Positions 39,442-59,639 of a stretch of DNA of 64,000 bases are shown here, in pieces. The notes below the pieces were generated by a model. That model was not told the origin of the DNA, searched no databases, and saw only the letters and a list, made by a program, of their open reading frames with translations. Numbering within the stretch: the stretch's first letter is position 1; each line of letters begins with the position of its first letter. The translations under genes were made by a program, and so were the position numbers. This DNA is from Escherichia coli (GTDB lineage: Bacteria > Pseudomonadota > Gammaproteobacteria > Enterobacterales > Enterobacteriaceae): NCBI RefSeq assembly GCF_011045215.1, contig NZ_CP049202.1; one strand, 5' to 3'.

Positions 39442-39754
39442 CGAAGGGGTCCTTATATTTCTGAATAATTCTGTCGATTAGTTCTTTCACCGGAACAGAT
39501 TTTCCGCCACCGGATTGTCCGGCAACCACAATATGCCCCGGAGAAGAAAATAAACTCATCGACATACCCTTCTTCATCACACCGACAGCAGCCATATTAA
39601 AATTGTCCGGCAATGACTCAGAACCGAATTTCTCCGGTGCAGGAAGGACGATTCTTGTGGCGCAGTTACTGAGAACAGCATGAATAAAATCATCTGACAC
39701 GGTTTTACCCGGCACAGAGAGGGCTGTAATAACATTAATATTACGCATGTTCAT
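39434..39754 (-). CDS. ORF at the trbD position with a C-terminal Walker-A-like motif
   Basis: about 106 aa from internal start; GQSGGGKS motif near the C-terminus. Confidence 0.4.
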   Translation of the reverse strand: MNMRNINVITALSVPGKTVSDDFIHAVLSNCATRIVLPAPEKFGSESLPDNFNMAAVGVMKKGMSMSLFSSPGHIVVAGQSGGGKSVPVKELIDRIIQKYKDPFDE

Positions 39755-40331
39755 TTTTATCTCCGTTGTTTCTGATTGTTCTGTCATCAGGGAAATAAAC
39801 ATGGCATTCCCTGATTTTTCCCGGCAGGGAAGTGTCTTCTGCAAGAACTTCCTTCAGACGCTCATCTGCAGTTGCCACCCGGACACATTTCATTTTTCCG
39901 GGTCGCATCGGATATTTTCCGGAGATCACCGCCAGCGAGACATACATCAGTGCCAGCGTTGCCCATAATGCGGTGAACAGTTGCATCAGAGACTAGTCAG
40001 TCTCCCTGGCATATTCTGCAGCATCCCCCCGGCGAAAACCGCACGTTACAGACGGAGGCATCGCTAAATCGGAACCAAAACTGTTCGAGCAGTATCGGAC
40101 CGGATACAGCCCGGCTGGCGTTCTGCCCCTTACAAACTCGATCTCCTGAACCAGCAATTTCCCCGGTGTGGTGTTGTCCTTCCATAAAACAAACAGAGCC
40201 ATCAGGGCCATTGTGGCCAGTGGCAGAATGACGGCGTATTTCAGACACCAGAACAGTCCTCGCAGAACCCGGGCGACAACATACCGGGCGGCATGGCCCG
40301 CCTGACGGGACGACGTATTATTTGCCATCAT
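39741..40331 (-). pseudogene. traP: traP interrupted by an in-frame amber codon
   Basis: 112-aa and 81-aa ORFs share one frame, separated by TAG at 39993..39995; total about 196 codons as F TraP. Confidence 0.6.
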
Positions 40332-41745
40332 TGCCCCCTCCCTGACTGCCGGACATAAACTGCTGCGGATTCAGGTTGCCCAGTTGCTTCAGCATCTGGT
40401 CAGTATTAAAGCCGTTAAGATGACTTTCAGCTGATGGCGGAACAGGAACCGGACTTTCCGGATTGTCTTCTTCCGCTCTGCTCTGCGTGCGTTCCAGCGC
40501 CATCTCTTCCACGGTTTTCAGCTGGAAGCCGTCCTGGAACACCACGGTCACTTCGTTGCCCGCACCAATCGGTATCACCGGGTGATACTGTTCGGCACGT
40601 TTGATGTAGTAGTCACTTAGCGTCTGTGCGGCTTTCGATGCGCCGCCACCGATACCCATTTTAAGGACATCGCCGACCCCGTAAGCAGCAGTGGCACCCA
40701 GCCCGACAGCCGGCTGGGAGGCGCGCTCCATTCCCTGACCGATACCGTCAACAAATCCCGCGCCCCATGCCCAGCCGAGGATTTTGCCGTTACGCATCAC
40801 CACTTCGCCCTTGATACCGTTTTTACCCCGGAAGCTGACATGCCCCTTAATCGGCATATCAATGGTTTTGCCGTCCTTCAGGCAGCTGATATTGCGGGTG
40901 CGTACAATGGCACGCTCACTGGACACATCCCCCCAGGCTTCCAGACCCACAAAACATCCCGTTGCGTCATACGTCTTGCTGTTCGGCATTTCCACCAGGC
41001 CGGTGATACGCAGCTGCATCGGCACCGTGGATTCATTACCGGTGACAGAGGCATTGGCATCAGCCCCTTCAATCAGCATGGCTTTCGCAAAACTTCCTGA
41101 CGGAATGTACGGCAGTGATGGTCCCTGTTTTCCCTCATTACGGGTAAACACCTTACGCTGTATCCGGTTAGGTACCGGCACAGACTGGTACGTCACCTGT
41201 GGTGGTGGCGTGACACCATTCCCGGGATAAAACGCCGTCGGCGGTGGAACAGCAACGCTGCCCTGCGGCGGGAAGGATACGGGGGTGTTTCCTGGCTGTG
41301 GTTCGCCTTCCGGGCCGGGCGGTGAGGCAGGCATCTGCGGTACAGGCTCACCGGTCGCCGTGACGGGATTAGCACCCAGGGCTTTTACCTGCTCTGCCAG
41401 GGCGGCATTGTCCTGTCCCAGCTTTTCAATACGACGCTGGTCATCACCGCGCTGTTTGTTCAGAACATCCAGCTCACGACGGATTTCCTCATACTGCTTC
41501 TGCATCTGCGCTGCCGTCACCTGCATCTCGGTGGTGGCATGCTGACGCACCTTGTCATCAAAGGTCGTATCCACCACACCGGTCATATCCGGCACAGGCT
41601 CCTGTTCAGCCACGGTTTCACCGTTACCGGACATGTCCACATCAGACAGATACAGTGCCCCACCAATCGCGGAGGCTGTACCGACAACCACAATCCCCAG
41701 CCACAGGTACTGCTTGCGTTTCACAATGGTATTGATACTGGCCAT
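40318..41745 (-). CDS. traB: TraB VirB10-like protein
   Basis: 475 aa, same length as F TraB; proline-rich linker. Confidence 0.9.
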   Translation of the reverse strand: MASINTIVKRKQYLWLGIVVVGTASAIGGALYLSDVDMSGNGETVAEQEPVPDMTGVVDTTFDDKVRQHATTEMQVTAAQMQKQYEEIRRELDVLNKQRGDDQRRIEKLGQDNAALAEQVKALGANPVTATGEPVPQMPASPPGPEGEPQPGNTPVSFPPQGSVAVPPPTAFYPGNGVTPPPQVTYQSVPVPNRIQRKVFTRNEGKQGPSLPYIPSGSFAKAMLIEGADANASVTGNESTVPMQLRITGLVEMPNSKTYDATGCFVGLEAWGDVSSERAIVRTRNISCLKDGKTIDMPIKGHVSFRGKNGIKGEVVMRNGKILGWAWGAGFVDGIGQGMERASQPAVGLGATAAYGVGDVLKMGIGGGASKAAQTLSDYYIKRAEQYHPVIPIGAGNEVTVVFQDGFQLKTVEEMALERTQSRAEEDNPESPVPVPPSAESHLNGFNTDQMLKQLGNLNPQQFMSGSQGGGNDGK

Positions 41746-42473
41746 CAGTTGCCCTCCCCGTCACGGATGACATACACATCCATGCGCGCACCTGCCAGTA
41801 ACTGGCTGGCAGGCTGGCTGAACATCACGGCACGGGTTCCCGGCTGCCAGAAGTCACTTTCCCGGATATTCAGGGCAGACAGCGTTTTATTTTCCACGGC
41901 AAAGCGGACCATCTTCAGGTGATTCCCCGTCCATACGGCATCTGCCACTGAAGACAGCCCCGCCGGGGCCTGCAGGGTTTCCTTTGTCACCGGGACCTGA
42001 TACCAGCCTGCGGGTAATTTTCCGCCACGGACGGCCTGGCTGATGGTCACAAGCAGGGATTCGTAAGGCGTGGACGTTTCCCACGCACCGGCTTCTTCTC
42101 CGGTTCCGCGCAGGTCACTGACCAGCTGAATGGTACGCCCCGCGCCTTCACGGGGAACGGCCTGAATGGAAAGATTCAGACCACGTTCTGTTTCCAGAAT
42201 GAACGTAAAGGGCTTTTTGTTGACGGTGGCAACCACCACACCGCCGGAGGCGGTCTGCTCATTATTGGTCAGGGCACCATCCAGACTGTTCACGGCGATA
42301 ATCCGGTCACCGGGAACGGTAAACAGATTCGGGCTGGTATTGCTGATGGCAATACTGGCCTGACCACCGTTCACCATTGGCACCACGGTGGGGGCCAGCG
42401 TACCGTTTGCGGCCATCACGCTGCAGGAAAAAAACAGGCTGCCGAATATTATTGCCGTATTATTTTTTCTCAT
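41745..42473 (-). CDS. traK: TraK secretin-like protein
   Basis: 242 aa with signal peptide. Confidence 0.9.
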
Positions 42474-43026
42474 CGTCTGTTTCCCCGAAATTATCCAGCC
42501 AGGTCACCCCGTTTTCCCGCTTCAGAATAAGGATGTAATGTTTGATATCAGTGAAAGGTTTTGAATCACCAATCCAGGTTTTAAGCACACCACGAATTTC
42601 CACACGGCCATACTGAGGCCAGACACGAACACTGGTCTGGAAAAAGGCTGAGTTCACGTTATCGTTTTTAATACGCTTCGCTTCTTCAGCCAGAATAACT
42701 TTCATCTGGTTCTGTGCGCCCGGACGGATATATTGCAGAAGCGCCTGATGTGAGGCATCGACGGTTTCTGATGAAACATTCAGGCGGAGGGCAATAAATG
42801 ACAGCGCCATCTGCTGTAAATAAGAGGCATCTGCACTATTCTGCGACACGGCAAAGGGGGCATTAAATGCCATTGGCGTCACGGCAGTGCGTTGCTCATT
42901 CTGAAGACGGTAGTTATTCACCCCCTGAATGACGTTAACAGAGAGGCTGAGAACAATAAGCACTGACATAAATATAAAGGCGATGGCCATTACACGACTG
43001 GTACTTAAACGGGCACCGTGTTCCAT
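42460..43026 (-). CDS. traE: TraE pilus assembly protein
   Basis: 188 aa with N-terminal TM helix. Confidence 0.9.
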
Positions 43027-43047
43027 ATAACAATCCTGGTATCAGTT

Positions 43048-43359
43048 CTATTTAATCCACTGCCGGAAACACGAATCGGGAATATTATGAAAAATACCGC
43101 GCAGCAGGGCTGTTGGCATATACCAGTAAATCAGGTCACGTAACCAGGAACTGCCCCGCCCCTTTTTCAGTTTTTTAATCCCGAAATAAACCAGAACCGC
43201 TGCACCAATACCGAACAGATATTTCGATGTTGTGATACCCCAGCCAGTACAGATTGCTGCGGGTATCAGTTCATCCAGTGGCAGGCCAAAGTAGCGGCTC
43301 TGGTTGGTCAGTGTTTCCGGGAAACGATATTTCTTAAGTTTATTCTCGTCTCCCGACAT
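43048..43359 (-). CDS. traL: TraL pilus assembly protein
   Basis: about 100-aa membrane ORF between traA and traE. Confidence 0.8.
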
Positions 43360-43373
43360 CGTTTTATTTCCTG

Positions 43374-43733
43374 TCAGAGGCCAACGACGGCCATACCCAC
43401 AGCAATAAATACAGAAATGATGGCAAAACCGGCCAGGAACTTGACGTTTTTGGTCATCATGTACATGACCGCACCGACCAGAACTTCAGCCAGAACAACC
43501 CATTTAACAACACTGGAGTCCTTACCGAAGGTCGCCTTAACCGTGGTGTTACCGCTTGCCATCAGGTCCTGGCCCTGTGCTGCCATTGCCAGCTGCGGGA
43601 AGAACATCATCAGAACAGCAGCCGGGATCACAGCGCGAACCAGGCGAAGCATATTCAGACGAGTGAATTTAGAAAAAAACGACTTCTTTTTGACGGGCGC
43701 AGAAGCACCCTGAACACTTAAAACGGCGTCCAT
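43374..43733 (-). CDS. traA: TraA propilin (F-type)
   Basis: 119 aa; ...[75 protein letters not shown] near-identical to F-like pilins. Confidence 0.95.
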
Positions 43734-43775
43734 ATGATTCCTCTGTTTAATATTGATAGTAAAAAATAAAACTCT

Positions 43776-43991
43776 TTATATATCGTCTATGTCTTCAGCT
43801 TCCTCCTTTACTAAAGATGCATTATAAAAGTCGGGAAAACGATTGAGATGATCTTTTAGTCTAATGAACACCTCATTAGTTTTTGTTCTTCCGCTACGAT
43901 CCCTGGCTGCTAAAAGTTTCTGATTAGTTGTCTCATCCAGTATTAATAAGACTTTGTTACCTGGTGCGGCTCTGGTTCTCCCTCTGCTCAC
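43776..43991 (-). CDS. traY: TraY ribbon-helix-helix oriT-binding protein (non-ATG start likely)
   Basis: 71 aa resembling the short R100-type TraY. Confidence 0.75.
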   Translation of the reverse strand: MSRGRTRAAPGNKVLLILDETTNQKLLAARDRSGRTKTNEVFIRLKDHLNRFPDFYNASLVKEEAEDIDDI

Positions 43992-44126
43992 GTTCCCTCC
44001 GCATAATTACTTGAGATAATAAAATATAATCATATAAATCATCTTTAATGAAAACAAAAATAGAGTAAATTATATTAACAAAAACGGGAACCAATGGTTC
44101 CCGCAAAATAACAAAAAGTTAACAGC

Positions 44127-44774
44127 TTATCTTCCCAATATTTCTTTTACTTTAGCATATAAAGGAAGTATCTTTTCCGTTCTAATCATTTCATCCAACC
44201 AGAGATCTCTAGAACTAAATCCATATCGTTTAAATAATTTCATGGTTTTCTTCTTTGATTTAGACACAGTGATGTTCATCTTTGCTGATGAATAATGATG
44301 GCTAAACCCTATCAGATATGGCTCAATGCCTACATATTCATCAGAGGGTACAATTAATTCATTGGAGTATTTAGACACAACAAACGATGACAGATTATCA
44401 TTTGCTACCCAAATAAACCTCCAGATGAAGAAATAGCCGCATGGTGTTATAACACTTTCTATGATCACACTCCATAACGTATTATTAAGTAATATGTCAT
44501 TATTACAATTTACACCATAAATAGAAGAGCATGATTCAATCTCTGCTCTGGATAACTGTAATTTACATTCCAACGTTAAACTATCAAACCATTCATCACA
44601 TGAATTAAAGGACGATCTGATAAGTTTTTCAAAGCAGTTATTTTCCTTAATAAAAGAACCATCCTCGAAGCGGATACATACAGGATATTTTAAAAACGAA
44701 ATAGCCTCTCCAAGACTATGAGGGAAATGCAATTGACTGATGAGTGCTCTTTCTCTACGATCCATCGCACACAT
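44127..44774 (-). CDS. traJ: TraJ transfer activator
   Basis: 216 aa from ATG at 44774 preceded by GGAGG; position between traY and traM. Confidence 0.7.
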
Positions 44775-44857
44775 AGGAACCTCCGTTAAGGATTCTATGG
44801 ACAGTCGATGCAGGGAGTGGCTGCTCCCTGCATCGGCGATTTTCAGTTTCAATTTTT
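44771..44857 (+). ncRNA. finP: FinP antisense RNA (approximate ends)
   Basis: plus-strand stem-loop over the traJ RBS/start, then perfect stem-loop GATGCAGGGAG...CTCCCTGCATC followed by a U-rich tail. Confidence 0.45.
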
Positions 44858-44964
44858 AACGTGGCATTAACCACGTAATCAATATACTAATTATTCTGAT
44901 TATTGTCATCAGTTCGAACCATAAAAAACTCTGATATTTGAACAAAGTCAAAATTTATTTCCCT

Positions 44965-45348
44965 TTATTCATCATCATTTTTTGGAAAGAACCTTTCCAT
45001 CTCAACCGACACCTTCTCTCTGATATCTTCAACCATATTGGCATATTCAAACTTCGGGTTTCCGGAAACATGAGGGCTAAGAGACTCAATACCTAAAATC
45101 TTTGCCACTGTTGACTGCGTTTTTACAACACATTCAAGAAGAAGTTTATTAAACTCTGCCTGATTAAATGCTGATTCTTTTCGTTCCATCTGCGCTTCAT
45201 AAACTCGCAATCCTAACTCAAGCAACATAGAGGCAATACTTGAATAACTAACATCTTTCTCTTTTGCTCCCTCTGCTCGCCTCTGCACAGCAATAGCATT
45301 TATTTTTTCAGACACATGGTCATTAACATAAACCTGAATTTTGGCCAT
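44965..45348 (-). CDS. traM: TraM relaxosome accessory protein
   Basis: 127 aa; closely resembles F-like TraM. Confidence 0.9.
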   Translation of the reverse strand: MAKIQVYVNDHVSEKINAIAVQRRAEGAKEKDVSYSSIASMLLELGLRVYEAQMERKESAFNQAEFNKLLLECVVKTQSTVAKILGIESLSPHVSGNPKFEYANMVEDIREKVSVEMERFFPKNDDE

Positions 45349-45779
45349 AACACACCTTATTTATCTTCCTAAACAAACAATATGTTTTCGTGCTCTCTAT
45401 TCTTCACCTTACGACGAATCGCCATTAGATTCATCATACTAAAATTACGATTCACTATACGAATCAGCAATCATCAAATGACGAATCTAATATAGATTCA
45501 CGCGCCAAGTAAATAGATGTTTTCAAAAAAATAGTCATTACTGAATCATTGACAATTCGTGATAGATTCACTATCGAATCTATCACGAATCCCTGCAATA
45601 TAATTCAAAATTATATAATATAAATACACTTCATTAATTACATGATTTAAAACACAAATCAGCAAAAACTTGTTTTTGCGTGGGGTGTGGTGCTTTTGGT
45701 GGTGAGAACCACCAACCTGTTGAGCCTTTTTGTGGAGTGGGTTAAATTATTTACGGATAAAGTCACCAGAGGTGGAAAA
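45349..45779. promoter_or_regulatory. oriT with nic site between 45688 and 45689 on the plus strand, plus TraM-binding repeats
   Basis: TTTTTGCGTGGGGTGT/GGTGCTTTTGGTGGTGAGAACCACC matches the F oriT nick region; GAATC/GATTC repeat motifs at about 45400-45590. Confidence 0.85.
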
Positions 45780-46289
45780 ATGAAAAAATGGATGTTAGCC
45801 ATCTGCCTGATGTTTATAAATGAGATCTGCCATGCCAATGATTGCTTTGATCTTTCAGGCCGGGATTACAAAATAGATCCTGATTTACTGAGAGCAATAT
45901 CATGGAAAGAATCCCGTTACCGGGTTAATGCCATCGGTATTAATCCGGTAACGGGATATGGCAGCGGACTGATGCAGGTAGATTCCCAGCATTTTAACGA
46001 ACTGGCCCGCTATGGAATTAATCCGGAACATCTGACAACAGATCCCTGCATGAACATTTATACCGGTGCTTATTATCTGGCAATAGCCTTTAAAAAATGG
46101 GGCGTCTCCTGGGAGGCCGTTGGTGCATACAATGCCGGATTCAGGAAGACCGAACGCCAGAACCAGAGACGTCTTGCCTACGCATCAGATGTTTACCGGA
46201 TTTATACCGGGATAAAAAGCAGTAAAGGTATCCGGATTCCGGCCACGAAGAAATCACTTCCGGAAATTAACAGCGTGCAGAACAATTAA
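45780..46289 (+). CDS. lytic transglycosylase, gene X / orf169
   Basis: 169 aa from ATG at 45780; signal peptide; SLT-like core. Confidence 0.85.
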
Positions 46290-46707
46290 TCTTACAGACA
46301 TTGTCAGATACCGGTTATGCCGCAAAAGCGGCATGGAAGGCCACACACAAAAATATCATATGAGTGACAATACTGACTGGCCGAAGCCCCGCGAAGCGGG
46401 AACCCATCTTATATATACCCGGTAACTGCGCAGCCTCCTGCCAGACCATTTTTCGCGGGCACAATATTTACAGACAACCGGAAAGCCAGTTGATGAAATT
46501 GAGGTATATCAGACGACACAGCGATGCCGAAGAATGATAATATAAGTAAAGCCCCGAAAATTTTTCGGGGCTTTACTTATATTATCATGACTTCCACTTT
46601 CTGAACTGTTCGGCAATCACCCATAACGCCTTGTTGATTCTTATATCACCATCAATACCTGTAATGGCTCTTGTCCTAGTATTTTTCCCGGAGGCACTTT
46701 GCCCCGA

Positions 46708-47406
46708 TCATCCACCTTTTATCATATTCTCCTGAACCCGCTGCCAGGTTGTCCAGAGATCGTTCTGTTTATCCTCCCAACGATGGGGAGTAATTATCTG
46801 TTCAGGCGTCACTGGCGTTTTATTTTCATCTTCATACCTGACCATCAGTGCAGCTCTGCTAAATAAATGTTGCTCGTCACTGTTAAGATGAATTTCTTTC
46901 ATCGCCTCCATATTATCAGTGACCTTATCAAAGATACCGAGTACTTCATACGCTCCCTCGATAACCTGCTCGACAATATCACCTTTATGTGGAACGCGGA
47001 TTTCGCCAAAATTATTTCCGCACACCAGGCCATTTGTGCAGACAAAACGAAAAATTCCGGGGATCATCTGATAACTGGATGAACCATCATGTGAATTAAG
47101 CAGGATAATTTCAGGAACTTCCTGCCCGTTAATATGCCCTTCCCTGCGAAGACGTAACATATGTTTACTGTATTCGCGACGTCCCAAATCACGAACCCGA
47201 CTCTGACAGGCAAAGAATGGCTGGAAACCTTCATCACGTAACTTATTGATGATATTGATTGTTGGAATATACGTATAACGTTCACTCCGGGACTCATGTT
47301 TATCACCGGAAAATACCGAAGGCACGAACTGCATTAATTCATCATCCGTTAAAGGACGTTCACGGCGGATGGAATTATACCGACCAAAACGGGAAGCTAA
47401 TCGCAT
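46708..47406 (-). CDS. leading-region hypothetical protein (orf273-position)
   Basis: about 232 aa from internal start; conserved position next to gene X. Confidence 0.5.
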   Translation of the reverse strand: MRLASRFGRYNSIRRERPLTDDELMQFVPSVFSGDKHESRSERYTYIPTINIINKLRDEGFQPFFACQSRVRDLGRREYSKHMLRLRREGHINGQEVPEIILLNSHDGSSSYQMIPGIFRFVCTNGLVCGNNFGEIRVPHKGDIVEQVIEGAYEVLGIFDKVTDNMEAMKEIHLNSDEQHLFSRAALMVRYEDENKTPVTPEQIITPHRWEDKQNDLWTTWQRVQENMIKGG

Positions 47407-47524
47407 AACAGCTACTCCTTTATGAAAGAATAAATTTAATAAAAAATTTTTCCGCTTAATATCATCCCTCCTGGTCACCATTAACAAGATTGCAACAATC
47501 AGGAGGAATATTCATCACATCCAG

Positions 47525-47811
47525 TCAGCAGATCGCCCGGATATCGAGGCCGGCACGCTTAATCTGACGCAGGAACTGTTTGAAGTGATCGGCTTCCGCA
47601 ATGTTGATATGGCGGAACTGCGTATCCACACCCCGGCTGAGCGCGTAGCTATAGCTGAAGGCCATCTTTTCCGGGTGGCTTTTGCGATATTTTTTCAGCT
47701 CAGTCAGGCTGCTGAATTCTAGGACGTCCCACTCTTCCCCGGTGTTTTTTTCTTCCCGGCAACAAGAAGCGTGTACGACGCGGTGTTAACGTGGATATTT
47801 CGGGTACTCAT
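47525..47811 (-). pseudogene. orf95-like leading-region gene with a frameshift in an A7 tract
   Basis: MSTRNIHVNTASYTLLVAGKKKTPG then stop; a 1-nt shift at 47745..47751 restores a 95-codon protein. Confidence 0.5.
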
Positions 47812-47837
47812 CCTGCTTTCTCCTCTCTCTGGTTTTC

Positions 47838-48380
47838 AGCCCCCATCATCTTTTGAGTTTCGGGAGCCGCGGTTTTGACGTTTTGCGGGGACCTGCCTTT
47901 TGTTCCCTCCGGTATTCACCATCATCTTTTTGAGAACCTTCGCCGCAAGGGGCATCACTGCCACGGCCGGAAACGACTGTCCGGGGGCAGACCGCAAAAG
48001 TTTTTGCCTGCTTCTGGGCAAAAACTTTTGCGGGATGTGCATTTCACCCCTGGACTGGCGGAGACGGTTGTGGCTGTATCAGCCCCCGGCGACAGGGGAT
48101 TAAACAGGTGAATGGCACCGGACAGAACAACGGGCAGGGACCCGCCGCAGCGACGTGAAGCGCGGTTTGCGAAACGGCGTTGCCCCTTACATCCCGGCGG
48201 CCTTTTGCCGGGATGCCGGGAGCGCAGGCCACGGCGCGACAGAGGCGGCGCGACCGGAACGGTCGCTGCAAGCCCGGGGTTTCGCGTCAGGGATGGAAGC
48301 CCGCCAGGGCGGAGACAGCTTCGCTGGCTCCGTTCACGACAGCCCGCCCCGCCAGGGGGACGCCCGGAAAAGGCATAAGC
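47838..48380. repeat. ~540-bp structured repeat, copy 1 (candidate single-strand promoter, Frpo/ssi-like)
   Basis: about 95 percent identical to 53226..53790; contains perfect 15-bp inverted repeat GCAAAAGTTTTTGCC...GGCAAAAACTTTTGC and longer imperfect arms. Confidence 0.6.
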
Positions 48381-48709
48381 AGGAGAACAACAAAACAGAC
48401 AATAATCAGGGCAGCAGTAATCAGAGTCAGAACAGGAGGAAAAAGAGAATAATCAAAGGGAAGGTGATGTGATTTCTGACAGGTCATAAACAGAGAAGGC
48501 GGGGGAAAAGAACGGGCGCCGCAGGCGCACGTTCATCCCCGTTCCCGGAGGGAAACGGCCTTCCTGGCAGTCTGGTTGTTCATGCCCGTACAATGCCAGC
48601 AAGGAGAAAGGGGCCACCGGCGAACCAGCAGCCCCTTTATAAAGGCGCTTCAGTGCAGTCAGACCAGCATCAGCCCTGAAAAGGCGGGCCTGCGCCCGCC
48701 TCCAGGTTG

Positions 48710-48868
48710 CTACTTACCGGATTCGTAAGCCATGAAAGCCGCCACCTCCCTGTATCCGTCTCTGTAACGAATCTCGCACAGCGATTTTCGTGTCAGATAA
48801 GTGAATATCAACAGTGTGAGACACACGATCAACACACACCAGACAAGAGAGCTGCGTGGTAGTTTCAT
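48710..48868 (-). CDS. hok: Hok/FlmA membrane toxin, with overlapping mok-like frame to 49009
   Basis: [52 protein letters not shown], near-identical to Hok. Confidence 0.85.
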
Positions 48869-49142
48869 GGCCTTCTTCTCCTTGCGCAAAGCGCGGTAAG
48901 AGGCTATCCTGATGTTGTCTAAGCATGCAGGGGCCTCGTGGGTTAATGAAAAATTAACTACGGGGCTTTTGTCCTTCTGCCACACAACACGGCAACAAAC
49001 CACCTTCACGTCATGAGGCAGAAAGCCTCAAGCGCCGGGCACATCATAGCCCATATCCCTGCACGCTGACCACACTCACTTTTCCTGAAAATAATCCGCT
49101 CATTCAGGCTGTTTACGGGTAATCTGTGTGATTGTTGCCGCA

Positions 49143-49862
49143 TCACGCTGCCTCCCGGAGTTTGTTCGGCACCATCCACCGCTCCATCTCACGGACAGCG
49201 TGACCGGCCTCTCTTGCTGCAAGACTGGCTTCCGCAATAACCTGCCAGAACGGCATATCCTGCCACTGCCAGCGTTCCATTCCGGACAGTGACGGAAAAC
49301 GCTCGCCCCACTGCCAGAACAGGGTTTCCAGGTCATGCTCTGCCACCCGGTCACTCCAGCGTGCATGCCAGCTTCCGACTGTTTCCGGCGAATGGAATGC
49401 CAGTTCGATTTCAGCCTGAGCGACCAGCTCCTGGTACGCACGGGCTTTCTGCTCTGCCTCCCGTGCCTGCTGGCGGCTGTACTTCTGCATGACCAGCGCG
49501 GATTTATGGCGACTGCGCTCCCTGACACGAAACCGCACCGACGGAAACAACCGCTCTGCTGCATCACCGGGAAGGGGAAGGAGGCAGACCTCGCCCTGTA
49601 TTTCAATCAGCACATCGATGACATACAGCCACTGAAGACGGTTGCCGTGCAGTTCTTCTGCGGTCAGGGACGGCATGAAAAATCGCAGGTCAGACAGCGA
49701 TATCCTGCGGCTTCCGTTCAGACAGCGGAAAAACGCCCCCGCATACGGATATTCCGCCAGCGTGTTACCCTGATGGCGGCGTTTTTCTGTCTCCGCCACC
49801 GCCCGCCATGCGGCCTGTTGCTCTGTGCTGAGCGGAACCAGTGCCTGTGAACGTACGCTCAT
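49143..49862 (-). CDS. psiA: PsiA
   Basis: 239 aa, directly downstream of psiB with overlapping stop/start. Confidence 0.85.
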
Positions 49863-50296
49863 ACCTGACCTCCTTCCGCCATCAGGATATGGATGATGTC
49901 GTTAACGCTGTACCCTTGCGTATCCAGTGACGCCGCCAGTGCCAGTGAATGGCTGACGGCTTCCGGTGCAAACCGCCGCTGTACCTGAACCACCGCAAAC
50001 GGCTCACCACCGGCATTCACCAGAACCAGCACCCAGACCTGAGAGACATCGCCCGGTGAACATAACGCCAGGTGAAAACGTTCGTGGGCAGGCGTGAAAC
50101 GGACCTGGACGGGGAAAAAGCCGCCAAACTCGCTGCCGTACTCGCCGTTCATCGTCCAGTTATCCGGCGCATCCAGCTCCCGCATCACGGCGTGAGTCAG
50201 CTCACGGCGTTCATCACTTCCGGCAGCCCGGATATCTTCATATTCCTGTGCGTTCATGGTCTGTAATACATTCAGGGTCAGTTCAGTTTTCATCAC
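49859..50296 (-). CDS. psiB: PsiB SOS inhibitor
   Basis: 145 aa; strong resemblance to F PsiB. Confidence 0.9.
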
Positions 50297-50347
50297 GGTA
50301 TCTCCCTTGCTGCCGCCCCGTCTCCGGCGGGGCGGTGTGGTTGTTCA

Positions 50348-52306
50348 TCAGGCGGCATCAGCCAGGTTATCGGTGCGTTCAGTGGCATCCGTCTGTGGGC
50401 GTGGTGCACACATCCAGCCAGGCACCCAGCGGTTGTCTTTCATGTGGAACTCTGCATGTTCAGCCGCATCGCCTTTCTTCATCTTCTCCGCGTCCCGTGC
50501 AGCACCGGACAGTCCTGCCTCATTCAGGGCTGCGATAATCTGCGGCTTTTTCAGGTGTCCGAAGAAGTTTGCTTTTGTCGGCTGCCACCAGTCGCGCATG
50601 TGAAAGCCGATGGCGCTTTCCAGCGAATCCAGCGGACTGCGTGACGTGTGACCATACTCACGGGTCTGAACACCGTGGATGCTGCACGCAGTGCAGAAAC
50701 TGAGCAGGGACAACAGCACCTCCTGACTGAGTGACAGGAACGTCGCCATGTCCCGTGACCATCCCTCCGGTAACAGGGCCGCAAGACGGGCTTTTTCTGC
50801 CATCATCGCCATGAACGCGGCACCTTCCTTCCCTGACGGCGCATCGCTGGTCAGCGAATAATGTTTACATTCCAGGCTGATTTGTGCTGGTTTACTGTAC
50901 GCTCCGCTGCCAAACACATTCAGGCAGAGCGTCCATGCCAGCAGTGCCAGAGATTTGTCCGGTTGCTGCATGAGTGCTGTCTGGACTGCCAGCGTGCGTT
51001 CGGAAGACATTTTCGTCAGCAGTGGCAGACTGATTTCCTCCACTGATGCTTTCTCCTGCACCTGTTCCGTGCGGTCAGCGTCATCAGTCGCGTCATCTTC
51101 ACTGCGCAACTGCACACCACGCTGGACACATACGTTTCCATAACGCCAGGACACCACCACGCCACTTCCGGCACGCATCTCCGGCGTCCACGCCCTGACC
51201 TTCGCCATGCAGTCAATCAGCTTCATTTCTGCTTCCAGCAGGTCGGATTCCTCACACTGATTTTCCAGCGCGTCGTAACGTGCCATCAGTTCGTTCAGGC
51301 GTTCTTCTTCCGCCTCCGTCAGCACAGCTTCCGGCTCCGGCAGACTGCGGTATGTTCCGGCATCCTCACGGCAGAAACCGACAGGCTCCATACGTCCAGC
51401 ACACCATTCCCAGCCTTCGGCTTCCCGAAGGTGTTCAGCAACAGCCTGGAGTTTTTCCAGCAGGGCGGCATCGAGCGCCACGCAGTCCACATAGCCACCC
51501 TCGTTGTCGCTGAACAAATCGGTGCGCAGTTCATCTGGCGAGAAGGCATCAGCCCCCACGAAGCGGAATTTACTGTTCCCCGCCACCACCACTTCACTTT
51601 CGGTCACCAGACGACGAATGGTCTGTACTTCCGGTTTTCCGCCCCATCCCGACTGACAGGCAGCTTCAAACACCTGTACCTGACGTGCGGTGTCGTTCTC
51701 CAGCGCCAGCGCCTGACAGTGCTCTGTGGTGATGCGGTCTTCTGCCAGCGCATCGAGGATGACAGGCGCAAGGTCAGCCAGTTTCAGCATTCGCTGAACG
51801 TGGCGGGGTGAATAGCCCAGCAAATCACCGATTTGTGCAGGTGTTTTGCCTTCCTGCGCCATTGCGCGGAATCCGGCAATCTGTTCGGCAGGGTGCATAT
51901 CCCGACGATGACCGTTTTCAGTCATTGATGCGGCAGTCGCCAGTTCCTGCGGAATGACCTTCACACGGACAGGCCAGTCAGCCGGAATGATGCCACGCTC
52001 TGCCAGCATGTTGAGTGCTGCCAGTCGGCGACCACCTGCGGCGACACCGTGGCGGTCACCTGGCAGGGCATGAACAACCAGATTCTGTAACAGGCCGACA
52101 CCTTTAATGGAGTCCGCCAGTTCGCTGACGGACTCCGCAGAATACGGCACCGTGCGCACATTCAGCGGTGACTTAATCAGTGAGGACAGCGGCACGCTCA
52201 CTTCCTCCGTCTGCGCCAGCAGGGCAGACAGGGCAGTCTCCTGCTCTTTTGACGGTTTACGGCTGGATTTACGCTCCGTTTTTGTCTTAGACTCTGTAAC
52301 TGACAT
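50348..52306 (-). CDS. ParB-like nuclease-domain protein (leading region)
   Basis: 652 aa with N-terminal ParB/Srx-like region. Confidence 0.75.
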   Translation of the reverse strand: MSVTESKTKTERKSSRKPSKEQETALSALLAQTEEVSVPLSSLIKSPLNVRTVPYSAESVSELADSIKGVGLLQNLVVHALPGDRHGVAAGGRRLAALNMLAERGIIPADWPVRVKVIPQELATAASMTENGHRRDMHPAEQIAGFRAMAQEGKTPAQIGDLLGYSPRHVQRMLKLADLAPVILDALAEDRITTEHCQALALENDTARQVQVFEAACQSGWGGKPEVQTIRRLVTESEVVVAGNSKFRFVGADAFSPDELRTDLFSDNEGGYVDCVALDAALLEKLQAVAEHLREAEGWEWCAGRMEPVGFCREDAGTYRSLPEPEAVLTEAEEERLNELMARYDALENQCEESDLLEAEMKLIDCMAKVRAWTPEMRAGSGVVVSWRYGNVCVQRGVQLRSEDDATDDADRTEQVQEKASVEEISLPLLTKMSSERTLAVQTALMQQPDKSLALLAWTLCLNVFGSGAYSKPAQISLECKHYSLTSDAPSGKEGAAFMAMMAEKARLAALLPEGWSRDMATFLSLSQEVLLSLLSFCTACSIHGVQTREYGHTSRSPLDSLESAIGFHMRDWWQPTKANFFGHLKKPQIIAALNEAGLSGAARDAEKMKKGDAAEHAEFHMKDNRWVPGWMCAPRPQTDATERTDNLADAA

Positions 52307-52369
52307 ATATTTCTCCTTTGACCGGGATGGTTGTATGTCTGCCGGACGCGTTCCCGTCCGGCACCTCTC

Positions 52370-53205
<836 letters not shown>

Positions 53206-53225
53206 GATGTGTCTCCTTCTGTTGA

Positions 53226-53790
53226 TGTTTTCAGCCCCCATCATCTTTTGAGTTTCAGGAGCCGCGGTTTGACGTTTTGCGGGGACCTGCCTTTTGTTCC
53301 CTCCGGTATTCACCATCACCTTTTTGAGAACCTTCGCCGCAAGGGGCATCACTGCCACGGCCGGAAACGACTGTCCGGGGGCAGACCGCAAAAGTTTTTG
53401 CCTGCTTCTGGGCAAAAACTTTTGCGGGATGTGCATTTCACCCCTGGACTGGCGGAGACGGTTGTGGCTGTATCAGCCCCCGGCGACAGGGGATTAAACA
53501 GGTGAATGGCACCGGACAGAACAACGGGCAGGGCCCCGCCGCAACGACGGAGAGCGCGTGCGCGAAACGGCGTTGCCCCTTACATCCCGGCGGCCTTTTG
53601 TCGGGATGCCGGGAGCGCAGGCCACGGCGCGACAGAGGCGGCGCGACCGGAACGGTCGCTGCAAGCCAGGGTTTCGCGTCAGGGATAGAAGCCCGCCAGG
53701 GCGGAGACAGCTCCGCTGGCTCCGTTCACGACAGCCCGCCCCGCCCCGCCAGGGGGACGCCCGGAAAAGCCATAAACAGGAGAGGAACGG
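53226..53790. repeat. ~540-bp structured repeat, copy 2 (candidate single-strand promoter upstream of ssb)
   Basis: near-identical to 47838..48380, ends about 20 bp upstream of the ssb RBS. Confidence 0.6.
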
Positions 53791-53817
53791 AAAGAAGAGG
53801 AAGAGGAAAAAGAAAAA

Positions 53818-53841
53818 GAAGAAGAAGAAGAAGAAGAAGAA
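53818..53841. repeat. (GAA)8 trinucleotide microsatellite
   Basis: gaagaagaagaagaagaagaagaa read directly; absent from repeat copy 1. Confidence 0.9.
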
Positions 53842-54018
53842 CAATAACAAGCACGGTAACCACAGAAAAATAACATCAGAAAAAAACATTCCGGACACAT
53901 CACAAACAGGAAGGGTAACGGGCGACGCGTCAGCGTGGCCCGCTTCCCTTCCGGCAGGCGTCAGCCTGCCAGGGGTTTTCGCGCGGGCTGACAGGCGGCC
54001 TCCACCGCCTGCCCTGTA

Positions 54019-54210
54019 TCACCTGTTTCTGCTGCCCTGAAGGATGTACTGACCGCCGAGGAATACAGCCTGCTGATTCGCCACAAAATCGCAGATTTCA
54101 TCAACAATCTGCGCCGTGGTGAGCGGTTTCTGCCCCATTTCACGACGTCGTGCATTAATCACAGCTTTGTAATTACGCAGAATTTCGCGGGTTTCCGTGC
54201 TGATATTCAT
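54019..54210 (-). CDS. hypothetical small protein
   Basis: 63-aa ORF coupled to the stop of the upstream ORF. Confidence 0.4.
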   Translation of the reverse strand: MNISTETREILRNYKAVINARRREMGQKPLTTAQIVDEICDFVANQQAVFLGGQYILQGSRNR

Positions 54211-54629
54211 TACCCGTTCTCCCCGTCCAGCGCCTGACGCATCACCCGCATAATCTCACGTTCTTCCCTGACAAATGCGTCACCGTCGCCCCCGTTCTCG
54301 CTCCCGACAGCATGGAGGCGATAAATTTCACTACCAGCCATCACCATCACTTTTTCCAGCAGCACCGCAGGGACTGTTACAAGACGGTTTACGCGCTTTT
54401 CCTCCATCAGTTCATTGACAATATCGGAAACAACTCTGTCACATGCGCCATATACAAAAGCATCGTCCAGCCGCTGCATGACGGTTTCCAGCTCATCGTC
54501 TGTCAGACTCCAGTCCTGGGCTATGTGACGCACATCCCCACGGGTCAGCACCACGGCAAAAACGCATTCACTGTCCGGCACGTCTGTATCCAGTACATCG
54601 CGAATGATTTCTTTAACAGTACAGTACAT
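54210..54629 (-). CDS. leading-region hypothetical protein, paralogous to 56333..56767
   Basis: 139 aa; shares MY.T..E...., SLTD.E..TV..R..D and VTVPA.LL motifs with the 155-aa ORF. Confidence 0.55.
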   Translation of the reverse strand: MYCTVKEIIRDVLDTDVPDSECVFAVVLTRGDVRHIAQDWSLTDDELETVMQRLDDAFVYGACDRVVSDIVNELMEEKRVNRLVTVPAVLLEKVMVMAGSEIYRLHAVGSENGGDGDAFVREEREIMRVMRQALDGENG

Positions 54630-54675
54630 GTTCTCGTCTCCTTTACAGGGGCGGCATTGCCGCCCCGTCCGTTAA

Positions 54676-55101
54676 TCAGTCCAGTGCCGCGTAAATCGCG
54701 TTGCATTCAGGGTGAAATTCGATGTGACGCCACAACTGCGCATCACGCATCCGGTAAAGCTGAGTCAGCCCCGCATCACCGCTGTCGTGGTACAGCCACA
54801 ACTGACGGTTAATCACAAGGGAAGTCAGAATGACACCTGCGGCATCAGCACTCACAGTACGGTCAAACCAGTTTGCACCGTTCACCATGTGGAAACGGTC
54901 GCCATCCGGCATCATGTAACCGCCACCGTCCGGCAGGCGGATGAAGTGCCAGAATCCGCCTTCATATTCCGGCATCATTTTTTTCGCCAGCGCGTATACA
55001 GACGCTTCGGCATACAGAAAATCCTGGCCAAACAGGTAAGGCAGAAAAGACAGACGGTCGCACTCTTCAACGTTCAGAGTGACAGATTTCGCATATTGCA
55101 T
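54676..55101 (-). CDS. antirestriction-like protein (KlcA/ArdB-type, tentative)
   Basis: 141-aa acidic protein at the position where F-like leading regions carry an antirestriction homolog; assignment from recall only. Confidence 0.45.
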
Positions 55102-55138
55102 GATGTTTTCCTCCGTTGTTCACATATTCCGCGACACC

Positions 55139-55372
55139 GGGCGGTGCCGTGCCTCCATAAAAGCCGGGCGATAAGGCGGGGATGCAGGGGCGCAAGGGAA
55201 GCCGCAGCCTGACGCACACGGCTGACGGGAGTTGGAGGGTGAGACCGCGAAATCTGAGCGGGTGAACGACCGGAAAATCACGGCAGACGGGAAGAAAGGA
55301 CCGGGTGACCGCAGCGGCAAAGCGTACCCTTGCATCCCTGCCAGCCCGGCTAAGATGGAGGCACGGCACAGC
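55139..55372. promoter_or_regulatory. long imperfect inverted repeat (candidate single-strand promoter)
   Basis: arms GGCGGTGCCGTGCCTCCAT... and ...ATGGAGGCACGGCACAGCC with about 60-nt pairing, directly upstream of 54676..55101. Confidence 0.45.
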
Positions 55373-55517
55373 CCGCACACGACGCTGAGGCCACATAACT
55401 GAAAAACCACAAGGCCATGCCCTGCATGGCCGGGTAAAGCGGAGCCGGCGGCGACTTCCTTTGTGCTCTGTCCGGGGACCGGCAGGAAAAAGGCGGGGAT
55501 TTACCCCGCCAACGTCA

Positions 55518-56288
55518 TCATTTCCGGATTTTTGCCAGGGCATCCGCCATGCTGCGGATTTCGGCCCGGGCTTCCCGGACCACCTCCCGCAGAACACCAC
55601 GGTCAAACCAGCGGCGGGGCGGTTCATCCGGTATACGCAGCACATCGCAGGCCAGCCCACTGGACAGGATATGCTCAATACAATCGCTGACCAGGTACAT
55701 TTCCACCGACGAAAAACGTGCTCCCCGGTTCACGATGGCATCGAGCACCACGGGCAGGTTTTCGTCATCTTCATCGAGCCAGCAGGGGTGATCGCTTTCC
55801 TTCACAACCAGACGAAAGCGGCGCGTCTGGCGGGTCAGCAACGTCTGACCGGTGGTGGTCAGCGCCGCCCGGATACGCCGCGCATCGTCTGCCACCTGGT
55901 AACAGATGCTTCGTATTGCATCGCGCACCGCCGCAAGTACAGCCCTGATTTCGTCTTCTGCCAGCCACTCACCGGCATACGGGAAAGACACCTGCGTTCC
56001 GTCTGCCGGAAGTACCGGCAGCGACTGCCACTGACTGCCGGACAGAACAAGTTCCGCCCCGGTTCCGGTCAGTTTCTGAATGGCAGAGGCCAGGTGCGGC
56101 GGCAGTACGCCGCCGTGACGGTTGATAAGTAACGTCGCCAGCCGGGGCGTATCCAGCCGCACGTAAATGCTGATCCAGCCCGGATGGTTCGGATTTCGCT
56201 GGTCAACATCCGTCTCTTCCGGCCAGCCCTGCGCCAGCAGCAGGTTACGGGCGTGGCGACAAATCAGTGCATTCAGCGTTTCGTTCAT
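55518..56288 (-). CDS. leading-region hypothetical protein (256 aa)
   Basis: long ORF with protein-like composition; no motif recognised. Confidence 0.55.
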
Positions 56289-56332
56289 GATTCATGGTCT
56301 CCCTGAATCGCCGCCCGCAGGCGGCGATAACA

Positions 56333-56767
56333 TCAGTCGTTTTCGCGTGTGTTGTTTTTCAGCAGGGCGCGGGCCTGATTAACCACCGCCAGTCGGCGGG
56401 TGACGCATTCCGGGACGACGAGGCCGTTATCACGGGCGGCCCACTCACGTTTCCACAGTGCCTGTTCAGCGGTCTGAATCAGGGACGCCAGCAGTTCAGC
56501 AGGGACGGTCACCTGGCGGTTTTCGCTCACGTTGCTGATAATCTCCATCACCGCGGCGGAAGAAATACCGGATTCAGTCCTCTGGTCTTCCGGGATGTCC
56601 TCCATGCGCGCCAGGACGGTCCTGATTTCATGATCGGTCAGAGAAATTTCCATACCGTCAGCCAGTGCCTGAATCTCTTCCGGAGACCAGATAACCAGCA
56701 TCAGCGGCGTGTCTCCCGGATACTTTGCTGCCAGCTCCCGGCAGAGCGTTTCGCATGTTCCGTACAT
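56333..56767 (-). CDS. leading-region hypothetical protein, paralogous to 54210..54629
   Basis: about 144 aa from internal start MYGTCETL... Confidence 0.55.
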   Translation of the reverse strand: MYGTCETLCRELAAKYPGDTPLMLVIWSPEEIQALADGMEISLTDHEIRTVLARMEDIPEDQRTESGISSAAVMEIISNVSENRQVTVPAELLASLIQTAEQALWKREWAARDNGLVVPECVTRRLAVVNQARALLKNNTREND

Positions 56768-56780
56768 TCTCGTCTCCTTC

Positions 56781-57002
56781 TCAATCTTTAAAGCACGCAT
56801 CCAGTTCCAGAATTTCGGTATATGCCTCCATCAGGAGGCGGTTTGCGCGAAACAACGTCTGACGCACCAGACGTTCCGGCAGGGTGTCAGCATTAAAGCT
56901 GTACCGCCGCTCCATCTCATTCATGGTTGTACGCAGGTCGCACATGGCATTGGCCACCTCCGCCACTTCGGCGCGAAGTTTTTCGTGTCCGGCATAGTTC
57001 AT
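56781..57002 (-). CDS. hypothetical small protein
   Basis: 73-aa ORF abutting the methyltransferase gene. Confidence 0.35.
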   Translation of the reverse strand: MNYAGHEKLRAEVAEVANAMCDLRTTMNEMERRYSFNADTLPERLVRQTLFRANRLLMEAYTEILELDACFKD

Positions 57003-57686
57003 TTACGCAGCCTCCGGCATAAACCAGTCATCATTCGCGGCCCCCTGCTGCATGGCCCGTTGCACGGCGGCAAGGCGTTGCTGCCCGGCACGGTGATACT
57101 GCTCAAGCAGCTCGATACCGATATACCGGCGTCCGGACTGGAGGGCGGCGACGCAGGTTGAGCCGCTGCCTGCAAACGGGTCCAGCACAATTGCGTTCGG
57201 GTGTGTGAAGCTCTCAATCAGCGGTTGCAGGCTGGTAACGGGCTTTTCCGTCGGGTGATGGCGATTGCCCGAATATTTCCAGCCCAGCACGTCCGGCGGC
57301 GGGTTTTGTGGCAGACGTGGACGGCCTTTTGCCAGGATGTAGGCGCATTCGTGGCGATAGCCCACATATGCGGCCTTCGATGTGTAGTTTTTGGTGAAGA
57401 CCAGGTGACCAACAACGCTGAATCCCGCATTTTTCCAGGCGGCAATAAAGCGATCGACGCGGTTCCAGCCATAGAAGCTCACCATTAACGCGTCTTTTTT
57501 CAGCACGCGGTACATCTCATTACAGGCCGGTTGCAGCCATTCATCGGTTTTATCTCCGGCGATGGTGCGCCCGGAACGGTCACGAAAACCGACGAGATAT
57601 GGCGGGTCAGTTAATATGAAATCAATGGCGTTATCAGGGATACGCGTCATAACATCGATGCAGTTACCAAGAACAAAACGGGACAT
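57003..57686 (-). CDS. orphan DNA methyltransferase (DPPY motif, N6-adenine/N4-cytosine class)
   Basis: 227 aa with DPPY catalytic motif and FAGSGST AdoMet-binding motif; no adjacent restriction endonuclease gene. Confidence 0.85.
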   Translation of the reverse strand: MSRFVLGNCIDVMTRIPDNAIDFILTDPPYLVGFRDRSGRTIAGDKTDEWLQPACNEMYRVLKKDALMVSFYGWNRVDRFIAAWKNAGFSVVGHLVFTKNYTSKAAYVGYRHECAYILAKGRPRLPQNPPPDVLGWKYSGNRHHPTEKPVTSLQPLIESFTHPNAIVLDPFAGSGSTCVAALQSGRRYIGIELLEQYHRAGQQRLAAVQRAMQQGAANDDWFMPEAA

Positions 57687-58034
57687 AATAACGCTCCTTC
57701 TCTTACAGAGGGCACCGGGAGGGCACCCCTGTGGTGCCCGTTCCCCGCTGCCTGTGGGCTGTTCACCGCGTCCGGTAACGGGTCAGGCCGACCGTGGAAT
57801 ATCGCAGCCGTCGTCTTTTTGACGGCGAGAATATGCCGCGAAAGCGGCTTGAAGGGCGTTCATCAGAAAAGGGCGACAGGCTGGCGTACACTGTCACCGG
57901 TACCAGCCGGGAGCAGTAAAAGCGCCCGTCCCGTGCCCGCCGGACGCGGGACACTGACCACAGGCAGCGTTCCTGCCGCGCCGCGTCAGCCGGCGCAGTA
58001 AAAAGAGGAGCACGGCGACATCCTTTGTCGGAAA

Positions 58035-58062
58035 AGAAACGGGCGGTTGCCCGCCCGTCTCC
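58035..58062 (-). terminator. rho-independent terminator-like hairpin after the 323-aa ORF
   Basis: GGGCGG-GCAA-CCGCCC then U-rich run on the minus strand. Confidence 0.45.
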
Positions 58063-58070
58063 GTCATACT

Positions 58071-58997
58071 TCATCCGCCATAATGCGCCACATTGTCGAC
58101 TATCCACGCAGGTCCGGTGACTTCCGGCAGCTCATCGTCATCTGTCGGGGAAGAGCATTCCAGTTCCCCCCACAGCACATCAACGAGCTCTCCGCGCTCA
58201 TACAACTGCCAGCCACAGAAATTGCAGCCCTGTTCGGCGTACCAGTGCTCCAGCGTGCAGCCGAAACGGCGGCTTAATTCTGCAACAACGTTGCTTTCCG
58301 GCTGACACCACGGCGTGTCGAAATCCACCTGAATGAAGTTGTCTCCCTGACGGCTGATATTCACCTCATACCTCACAGGCCACTTCACGCCATACTGTTC
58401 CGTATACCAGTGATACGCAGAAGGAACACCGTTCAGAACACCACCGTTAAAGCCATTCACTTCAACATCCAGGCGGGTGGGCAGAACCGTCAGCAGGTCA
58501 AACGGCATGGTTTTTTCCGGCAGTACATTGTCACACAGACGGTTCCACCACACCGATACATCCTCGTTACTCCAGAAGCCACACCAGTCACCTCTTTTGG
58601 CGGTGAAATGCACGGTGATGGTTTCTCTGACCTCATCCGGTAATCCTTCCCAGCGACGCTGGCCAGTACCACTCTGCAGCCAGAGTTCATGCAGCATCAG
58701 GCAGTTTTGCTCATCCAGCAGTACACCGTCCTGCAGGTATGTCAGCCAGCGGGTGAACGCGATATTCTCCGGCGATACAACACCACGTCCGGCAGCCGTC
58801 AGTCCGGGGCACGGTTCAAACTGCACATCTTCAGTGGTCTGCAGAAGTCCGGCACTTCCGGCCAGAAATAGCTGAATACCTTCATTTGTGGCGCGGCGAT
58901 AAAGCGGTATGACTGCACCGCTGGCCAGTCGTTTAATCTCAGCGATCTGTGCCGGTTCACCAGAAAAATACATACGATTCGAGCACCAGTTTAGCAT
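58071..58997 (-). CDS. leading-region hypothetical protein (about 309 aa)
   Basis: W-rich ORF with its own upstream hairpin and downstream terminator. Confidence 0.55.
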   Translation of the reverse strand: MLNWCSNRMYFSGEPAQIAEIKRLASGAVIPLYRRATNEGIQLFLAGSAGLLQTTEDVQFEPCPGLTAAGRGVVSPENIAFTRWLTYLQDGVLLDEQNCLMLHELWLQSGTGQRRWEGLPDEVRETITVHFTAKRGDWCGFWSNEDVSVWWNRLCDNVLPEKTMPFDLLTVLPTRLDVEVNGFNGGVLNGVPSAYHWYTEQYGVKWPVRYEVNISRQGDNFIQVDFDTPWCQPESNVVAELSRRFGCTLEHWYAEQGCNFCGWQLYERGELVDVLWGELECSSPTDDDELPEVTGPAWIVDNVAHYGG

Positions 58998-59019
58998 GGG
59001 AATTCTCCTCTCACATGCG

Positions 59020-59195
59020 GCCTCCATCAGGCCGTGCCGCACCTGTAACCGGGCGACCGCATACGAATGCAGGTGCGGCCCCGAAGCCGCAGCGCGTGGA
59101 GGAGGAACGACGAAACGTGACCGGGTGAGGAGGCCTGCGACAGCGACACACTTGCATCGGATGCAGCCCGGTTAACGTGCCGGCACGGCCTGGGT
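59020..59195. promoter_or_regulatory. long imperfect inverted repeat (candidate single-strand promoter)
   Basis: arms CAGGCCGTGCCGCACCTG and GTGCCGGCACGGCCTGG with nested inner arms, about 25 bp upstream of the 58997 start. Confidence 0.4.
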
Positions 59196-59351
59196 AACCA
59201 GGTATTTTGTCCACAGAACCGTGCACAAAATGCTGTGGATAAGCTGGACACAACAGTCCACAGCAGGCATACAGCCACACTCTCAGAGAATTGAGCGTTT
59301 TTTAGTCACAATAATGACATTTGACTGTGTGTGGATTCAGTTATTAGAATA

Positions 59352-59367
59352 CTGTATATACATACAG
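59352..59367. promoter_or_regulatory. LexA (SOS) box
   Basis: CTGTATATACATACAG fits CTGT-N8-ACAG, 24 bp upstream of the impC-like start. Confidence 0.75.
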
Positions 59368-59390
59368 CAAAAGAAAAGGGAGATGAGAAC

Positions 59391-59639
59391 ATGATCCGCA
59401 TTGAAATTCTTTTCGACCACCAGAGCACAAAAAACCTCAAATCAGGCACACTTCAGGCGCTACAGAATGAAATCGAACAACGTCTGAAACCACACTACCC
59501 GGAAATCTGGCTACGTATAGACCAGGGCAGCGCCCCGTCTGTATCTGTCACTGGAGCCCGCAACGACAAGGATAAAGAACGTATCCAGTCTCTGCTGGAA
59601 GAAATCTGGCAGGACGACAGCTGGCTGCCCGCAGCATGA
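59391..59639 (+). CDS. impC: DinI-like protein (ImpC-type)
   Basis: 82 aa from ATG with GGGAG RBS; DinI-like sequence; first gene of an SOS operon. Confidence 0.7.
   Translation: MIRIEILFDHQSTKNLKSGTLQALQNEIEQRLKPHYPEIWLRIDQGSAPSVSVTGARNDKDKERIQSLLEEIWQDDSWLPAA

Follow-up and report, generated by a model that had tools for sequence, protein, structure and literature searches.

The window, by which we mean the whole 64,000-nt stretch of Escherichia coli DNA analyzed here (contig NZ_CP049202.1), contains a small gene, ygeA, whose reading frame is broken in a run of A's. Read along the gene strand, ygeA lies behind a hok-family toxin gene and a 555-nt GC-rich element and is followed by the DUF932 gene ygeB and then by an SLT-domain transglycosylase gene, which has the opposite orientation and adjoins traM and oriT (Table 1). 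We based the name ygeA on the gene order and strain list in a published study of F (PMC9849209), together with the F RefSeq coordinates. In that study, by Couturier et al. 2023, the F element is named Frpo1, the genes behind it are ygeA and ygeB, the opposite-facing gene on the oriT side is ygfA, and a strain "ΔFrpo1-ygeA-ygeB" is listed (PMC9849209). Thus, ygeA corresponds to orf95, and ygeB to the DUF932 gene, orf273. The intact F counterpart of ygeA is at 64032..64319 of NC_002483.1, and the window and F have hok, the Frpo1 hairpin, ygeB, ygfA, and oriT in common. That study and its preprint were the only papers we found that name ygeA and ygeB, and our searches for literature on the orf95 leading region, the pMAR7 leading region, and IncF homopolymer pseudogenes found nothing.

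Table 1. Features of the ygeA region and its surroundings (positions in the window)
Feature	Coordinates	Strand	Remarks
ygeA (orf95) pseudogene	47525..47811	-	287 nt versus 288; copies in relatives labeled "frameshifted" by PGAP
A7 tract, site of the -1 deletion	47745..47751	-	T7 on + strand; A8 in intact alleles
Premature TAG in shifted frame	47719..47721	-	from window-specific SNP at 47720
Frpo1-type single-strand promoter element ("repeat copy 1")	47832..48386	+	97% identity to F; hairpin
ygeB (orf273, DUF932), second gene of Frpo1 operon	46585..47406	-	truncated at codon 233
SLT-domain transglycosylase gene ygfA/orf169, beside oriT	45687..46289	+	fixes synteny
hok-family toxin gene, flmA-like, upstream of Frpo1 element	48710..48868	-	context
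Repeat copy 2, Frpo2-like, upstream of ssb	53227..53783	+	repeat of 47832..48386; PMC9849209

The element upstream of ygeA matches its F equivalent at 97% identity over 889 nt. The first-pass annotation had described ygeA as the first gene after a repeat copy, and this was borne out, with 96% identity between the two copies. As single-stranded DNA the element forms a long imperfect hairpin (-162 kcal/mol, z = -8.5). The + strand is both the transferred strand and the template for ygeA, and we found no duplex sigma-70-like site upstream of ygeA on the gene strand. By its homology and its hairpin the element belongs to the Frpo / ssi class 1, and its promoter activity is predicted.

We made two side observations on this element. 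A 68-aa open reading frame lies inside the Frpo1 hairpin (47836..48042, minus strand). It is labeled "hypothetical protein" or "single-stranded DNA-binding protein" in public records, has no Pfam match, and is probably a spurious call. Separately, in PSUO103 and 2011C-4315 (our loci L005 and L006), an antirestriction gene, a DUF1380 gene, a hypothetical gene, and a single repeat copy precede ygeA, and the stretch from ssb through psiB and psiA to hok that separates the two Frpo copies appears to have been deleted. A recombination outcome of this kind was discussed by Couturier et al. (PMC9849209).

The start codon of ygeA itself is the ATG at 47811, and a good Shine-Dalgarno sequence (AGGAG) lies upstream of it. 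Translation in frame 0 gives 30 codons, MSTRNIHVNTASYTLLVAGKKKTPGKSGTS, before the TAG is reached, rather than the 25 codons reported in the first-pass annotation. The remainder of YgeA is encoded in the -1 frame and ends at 47527..47525. The tract has exactly the length and position that had been assigned to it, A7 on the gene strand, whereas the intact alleles have A8, read as AAG AAA AAA AAC (KKKN). Inserting one A into A7 yields an open reading frame of 95 codons whose product is identical at 95/95 residues to F YgeA (WP_000107542.1), the 95-aa protein encoded behind Frpo1. Both the proposed restoration by a one-base slip and the likeness to F orf95 were therefore correct. The plasmid pP393F10 has A8, and its ygeA is annotated as a 288-nt coding sequence with the same product, WP_000107542.1. 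One A in the tract was the only difference in ygeA length between the window and its relatives. Among the 26 homopolymers of at least 7 nt in the window, the ygeA tract is where the window differs, by a single base, from the intact alleles, and chance is thus not at issue.

The early TAG is a separate, smaller change. It arises from a SNP at 47720 that converts CTG to CTA, which is silent (Leu31) in the true frame and specific to the window; in other A7 plasmids the frame-0 stop comes after 35 codons. The window gene has full-length similarity to F YgeA and lies in the same position, but it is one A short of A8 and lacks an intact 95-codon frame. It is a pseudogene allele of the YgeA/ORF95 family of F, a family whose homologues are confined to plasmids of Enterobacterales.

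Homopolymers are classic sites of base-calling error, and the first-pass annotation had proposed either sequencing error or recurrent slippage for this tract. If the missing A were an error of sequencing or assembly, the true state would be A8 and ygeA would be intact. A second split gene in the window, with which the ygeA tract had been paired, looks at first to favor an error. At 32779..32786 (plus strand) an A8 run splits a 368-aa AT-rich accessory gene downstream of trbI into open reading frames at 32537..32812 and 32706..33644. The only close relative at this site, pRHBSTW-00673_2 (98.8% identical), has A7 and an intact 368-aa gene, and more distant relatives have AGAGAAA. The A8 at 32779 thus appears to be a +1 change private to the window, arising from a recent slip or from an error in base calling. 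Pairing the two sites is misleading: the change at 32779 is an apparently private +1, while that in ygeA is a shared -1, and of the two sites it is 32779, not the ygeA tract, where a read-level error is the more plausible.

The ygeA variant is not private to this assembly. Over 39570..60000 the window is collinear with pWY517IncF, its nearest plasmid in PLSDB; ygeA and ygeB contain no indels, and homopolymer differences are few across about 20 kb, which speaks against error. (In the oriT region, the window has an A7 run at 45525..45531, between traM and the SLT gene, where pWY517IncF has A8.) The tight clade of the window comprises seven plasmids from China, Nigeria, Thailand, and the UK that are 99.5 to 99.8% identical over 1651 nt, and all have A7; the best match to the window is NZ_CP159135.1 (99.7 to 99.8%). 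A7 was also present in pSA31IncF, pMAR2, pMAR7, pSFO157, an O157:H7 plasmid, O103 plasmids, and the Salmonella plasmid pAR-0401-2. Two relatives carry the RefSeq label "hypothetical protein; frameshifted" from PGAP. A7 and the haplotype around it are common to all close relatives, which were sequenced by independent laboratories on different platforms, and the A7 plasmids include pMAR7, pMAR2, and pSFO157, whose sequences we take to date from the Sanger era.

We then counted tract lengths in three collections, using exact matches with 60-nt context for PLSDB and RefSeq and a gapped-pattern scan for metagenome assemblies. The 2275 PLSDB plasmids with the region included 1653 with A8, 148 with A7, 8 with A9, and 2 with A6. 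The 2148 RefSeq complete E. coli records with the region gave 1573 with A8 and 93 with A7. In 108 metagenome contigs there were 94 with A8, 9 with A7, none with A6 or A9, and 5 with an interrupted tract, AAAAAATA. The nine A7 metagenome contigs have SPAdes-style NODE names and are presumably short-read assemblies, which also speaks against error. The PLSDB A6 records do look error-prone, since pSME98_1 has additional indels and the metagenomes lack both A6 and A9, and long-read errors may account for some of the A6 and A9 records. For A7, however, an error in the window would have to match the state of all its relatives. An inherited allele is for this reason far more likely, and an intact gene hidden by a miscall is extremely unlikely. 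We conclude that A7 is very probably a genuine, vertically inherited allele, the base call in the window being backed by descent from identical relatives. Of the two explanations offered in the first-pass annotation, error was unsupported, given A7 in the nearest relatives and in all three collections. Recurrent slippage stood as a mutational pattern across plasmids, with several haplotypes and with A6 and A9, but not as a process within this plasmid or during expression.

The evidence for recurrence comes from the flanking haplotypes. In an alignment of 24 sequences the region sorted into two haplotype families, distinguished by many sites to either side of the tract. A7 was found on the F-like type I (the window clade, pMAR, PSUO103, 2014C-4135, pSFO157, and pO157) and on type II (pAR-0401-2, pCFS3273-2, and ATCC 700415), and A9 was found on both types. 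Neighbor-joining trees with Fitch parsimony on these 24 sequences gave 6 to 7 changes of tract length, with A7 in three separate groups. The A7 haplotypes from metagenomes were of type I in five cases, type II in three, and a mixed type in one. With the tract repaired, no further ygeA lesion was present among the 108 metagenome contigs, as would be expected if the tract were a hotspot that mutates far more readily than the remainder of the gene. Together, these data support the view that the ygeA A-run is a recurrent hotspot of replication slippage whose length has been altered independently in several plasmid lineages. The interrupted tract (Asn23Tyr) was a separate variant, found in loci L073, L121, L128, L131, and L139; there the run is cut to A6 and the gene remains in frame.

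A-runs are recognized slippery sites. Transcriptional slippage rescues poly(A) frameshifts in endosymbionts, and dnaX uses programmed -1 frameshifting. We therefore considered recoding, in which the A7 allele would still yield full-length YgeA through transcriptional slippage or through a -1 slip on AAG AAA AAA A. As in those systems, an A-run lies at the frameshift point, and the exact wild-type YgeA would be regained if the mRNA acquired an extra A or if tRNA-Lys slipped by -1 on AAA. However, the arrangement at ygeA differs from both. RNA polymerase slippage is efficient only on runs longer than seven A's, and the seven A's of ygeA are too short for it. The zero-frame G AAA AAA A is not the canonical heptamer X XXY YYZ, and the 90 nt 3' of the tract had no structure beyond that of shuffled sequences (z = -0.01), so that a heptamer with a stimulatory structure was not found. 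Nor is the frameshifted arrangement the conserved state. The frame-intact A8 is the majority state (73 to 87% of sequences) and the ancestral one, and the slippery site is not conserved in homologues: distant YgeA homologues lack the run and have EKPKN, ENEKN, and similar residues in its place. Recoding is therefore very unlikely.

The A7 alleles themselves are compatible with relaxed constraint and with some possible residual use. A7 lineages carried five nonsynonymous changes and one synonymous change, which are tiny counts, and the changes included the invariant F77 and the near-invariant S12; these substitutions are consistent with relaxed constraint. The downstream 73 codons were open in all 14 A7 alleles that we fetched. 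One metagenome allele (L026:737-1024, Logan SRR29869000) combines A7 with a compensating +1, GTTAAC to GTTAAAC, 37 nt upstream of the tract; the frame is regained for residues 23 to 95, and residues 9 to 22 are scrambled. A7 alleles may thus retain some use of the C-terminal part of YgeA or some low-level accidental slippage.

Simple-sequence contingency loci are known from Haemophilus and Neisseria, and we asked whether the A-run could be kept since reversible slippage between A8 and A7 toggles ygeA to the benefit of the plasmid. The likeness is real in several respects. As at those loci, the homopolymer falls within the 5' portion of the coding sequence and its length varies among close relatives, with A6, A7, A8, and A9 found on shared haplotypes; the variation goes in both directions and across several haplotypes. 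ygeA is inactivated via the tract only, whereas ygeB is inactivated by at least nine different irreversible lesions, and the downstream frame of the A7 alleles is still open. However, the run is missing from distant homologues, the natural interrupted variant exists, changes at conserved residues accumulate in A7 lineages, and no reversion event was demonstrated. High-frequency reversible switching and selective upkeep of the tract, which mark the Haemophilus and Neisseria loci, are without support at ygeA. Homopolymers have high indel rates relative to the surrounding sequence, and a hotspot whose mutability greatly exceeds that of the other positions in the 288-nt gene accounts for the pattern without selection. 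We therefore regard a contingency switch as unlikely.

The next gene, ygeB, was also often broken. In the window, TTA is changed to TGA at codon 233 of ygeB (L233*, 46708..46710), a difference from F that adds to the short ygeA. Within the tight clade, 9 of the 14 polymorphic sites fall in ygeB; all nine changes are nonsynonymous or nonsense, the nonsense ones being W221*, Q225*, and L233*, and the probability of at least three nonsense changes among nine was 0.0066. NZ_CP159135.1 carries two of these three stops. In metagenomes, 14 of 98 complete ygeB copies (about 14%) were disrupted, by at least nine different lesions (loci L032 to L139).

A link between the ygeA frameshift and ygeB loss, in the sense of compensation, was considered and rejected. 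In a hand-picked set the association seemed strong (7/22 versus 1/38, p = 0.003), but it was unsupported in unbiased samples. In metagenome contigs, ygeB was disrupted in 12 of 90 with in-frame ygeA and in 2 of 8 with A7 (p = 0.32), and adding a spread sample of PLSDB plasmids to these contigs gave p = 0.13. Thus, the value from the hand-picked set is a sampling artifact. The broader reading, in which the A8 run is a reversible or leaky switch of the Frpo1 early-establishment operon and ygeB is repeatedly truncated under selection, is likewise improbable. If it were true, plasmid lineages would toggle ygeA, the gene that weighs most in F establishment in the laboratory, or turn it down by rare slippage, and the ygeA-ygeB operon would be costly in some hosts and its loss would be recurrent and adaptive. 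What the counts do suggest is frequent natural loss of the Frpo1 operon.

The reading we prefer is as follows. A one-base deletion in the ygeA run would have changed A8 to A7, and the allele would then have been inherited vertically. A7 would end translation of ygeA at 30 codons rather than 95, and new recipients would be expected to have no YgeA, or only traces made through accidental slippage. The window gene is thus very probably the first gene behind Frpo1 in the leading region of an F-like (IncF) plasmid, carrying an inherited slippage frameshift that makes it a loss-of-function pseudogene. The gene is a slippage pseudogene of the ordinary sort that standard annotation already flags, and it calls for no new mechanism. 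It is of the same kind as other homopolymer-slippage pseudogenes that PGAP labels "frameshifted", with a single-base change in a run, clonal inheritance, and independent recurrence.

What the loss means can be judged from F. There, YgeA is produced from single-stranded DNA via Frpo1 within minutes, and a YgeA-sfGFP fusion was seen before the plasmid turned double-stranded, which needed Frpo1 (PMC9849209). In the published experiments, ygeA is the gene whose deletion had the largest effect on F conjugation efficiency: transconjugants were at 92.6% for the wild type and 3.9% for ΔygeA, with 25.2% for ΔFrpo1, 32.7% for ΔFrpo1 ΔygeAB, and 14.5% for ΔFrpo1 ΔygeA (PMC9849209). As for the protein, we found no family match for YgeA in Pfam, NCBIfam, PHROG, or PADLOC and no sequence match in the PDB, and its AlphaFold model, which is of moderate confidence (pLDDT 66.7), gave no significant fold match (best E = 0.3).

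By extrapolation from the F deletion mutants, the A7 allele probably weakens establishment after transfer. The allele is of mild interest in that, of the genes in the leading region, it disables the one reported to affect F conjugation efficiency most strongly. For annotation, ygeA with A7 should be kept as a true pseudogene and not "polished" away as an assembly error. A null ygeA is present in about 4 to 8% of natural F-like plasmids, always via the tract, and these include the EPEC/EHEC virulence plasmids pMAR2, pMAR7, and pSFO157. Such natural ygeA null plasmids are ready-made mutants, and they suggest that in some settings plasmids can do without the gene or pay a cost for it.
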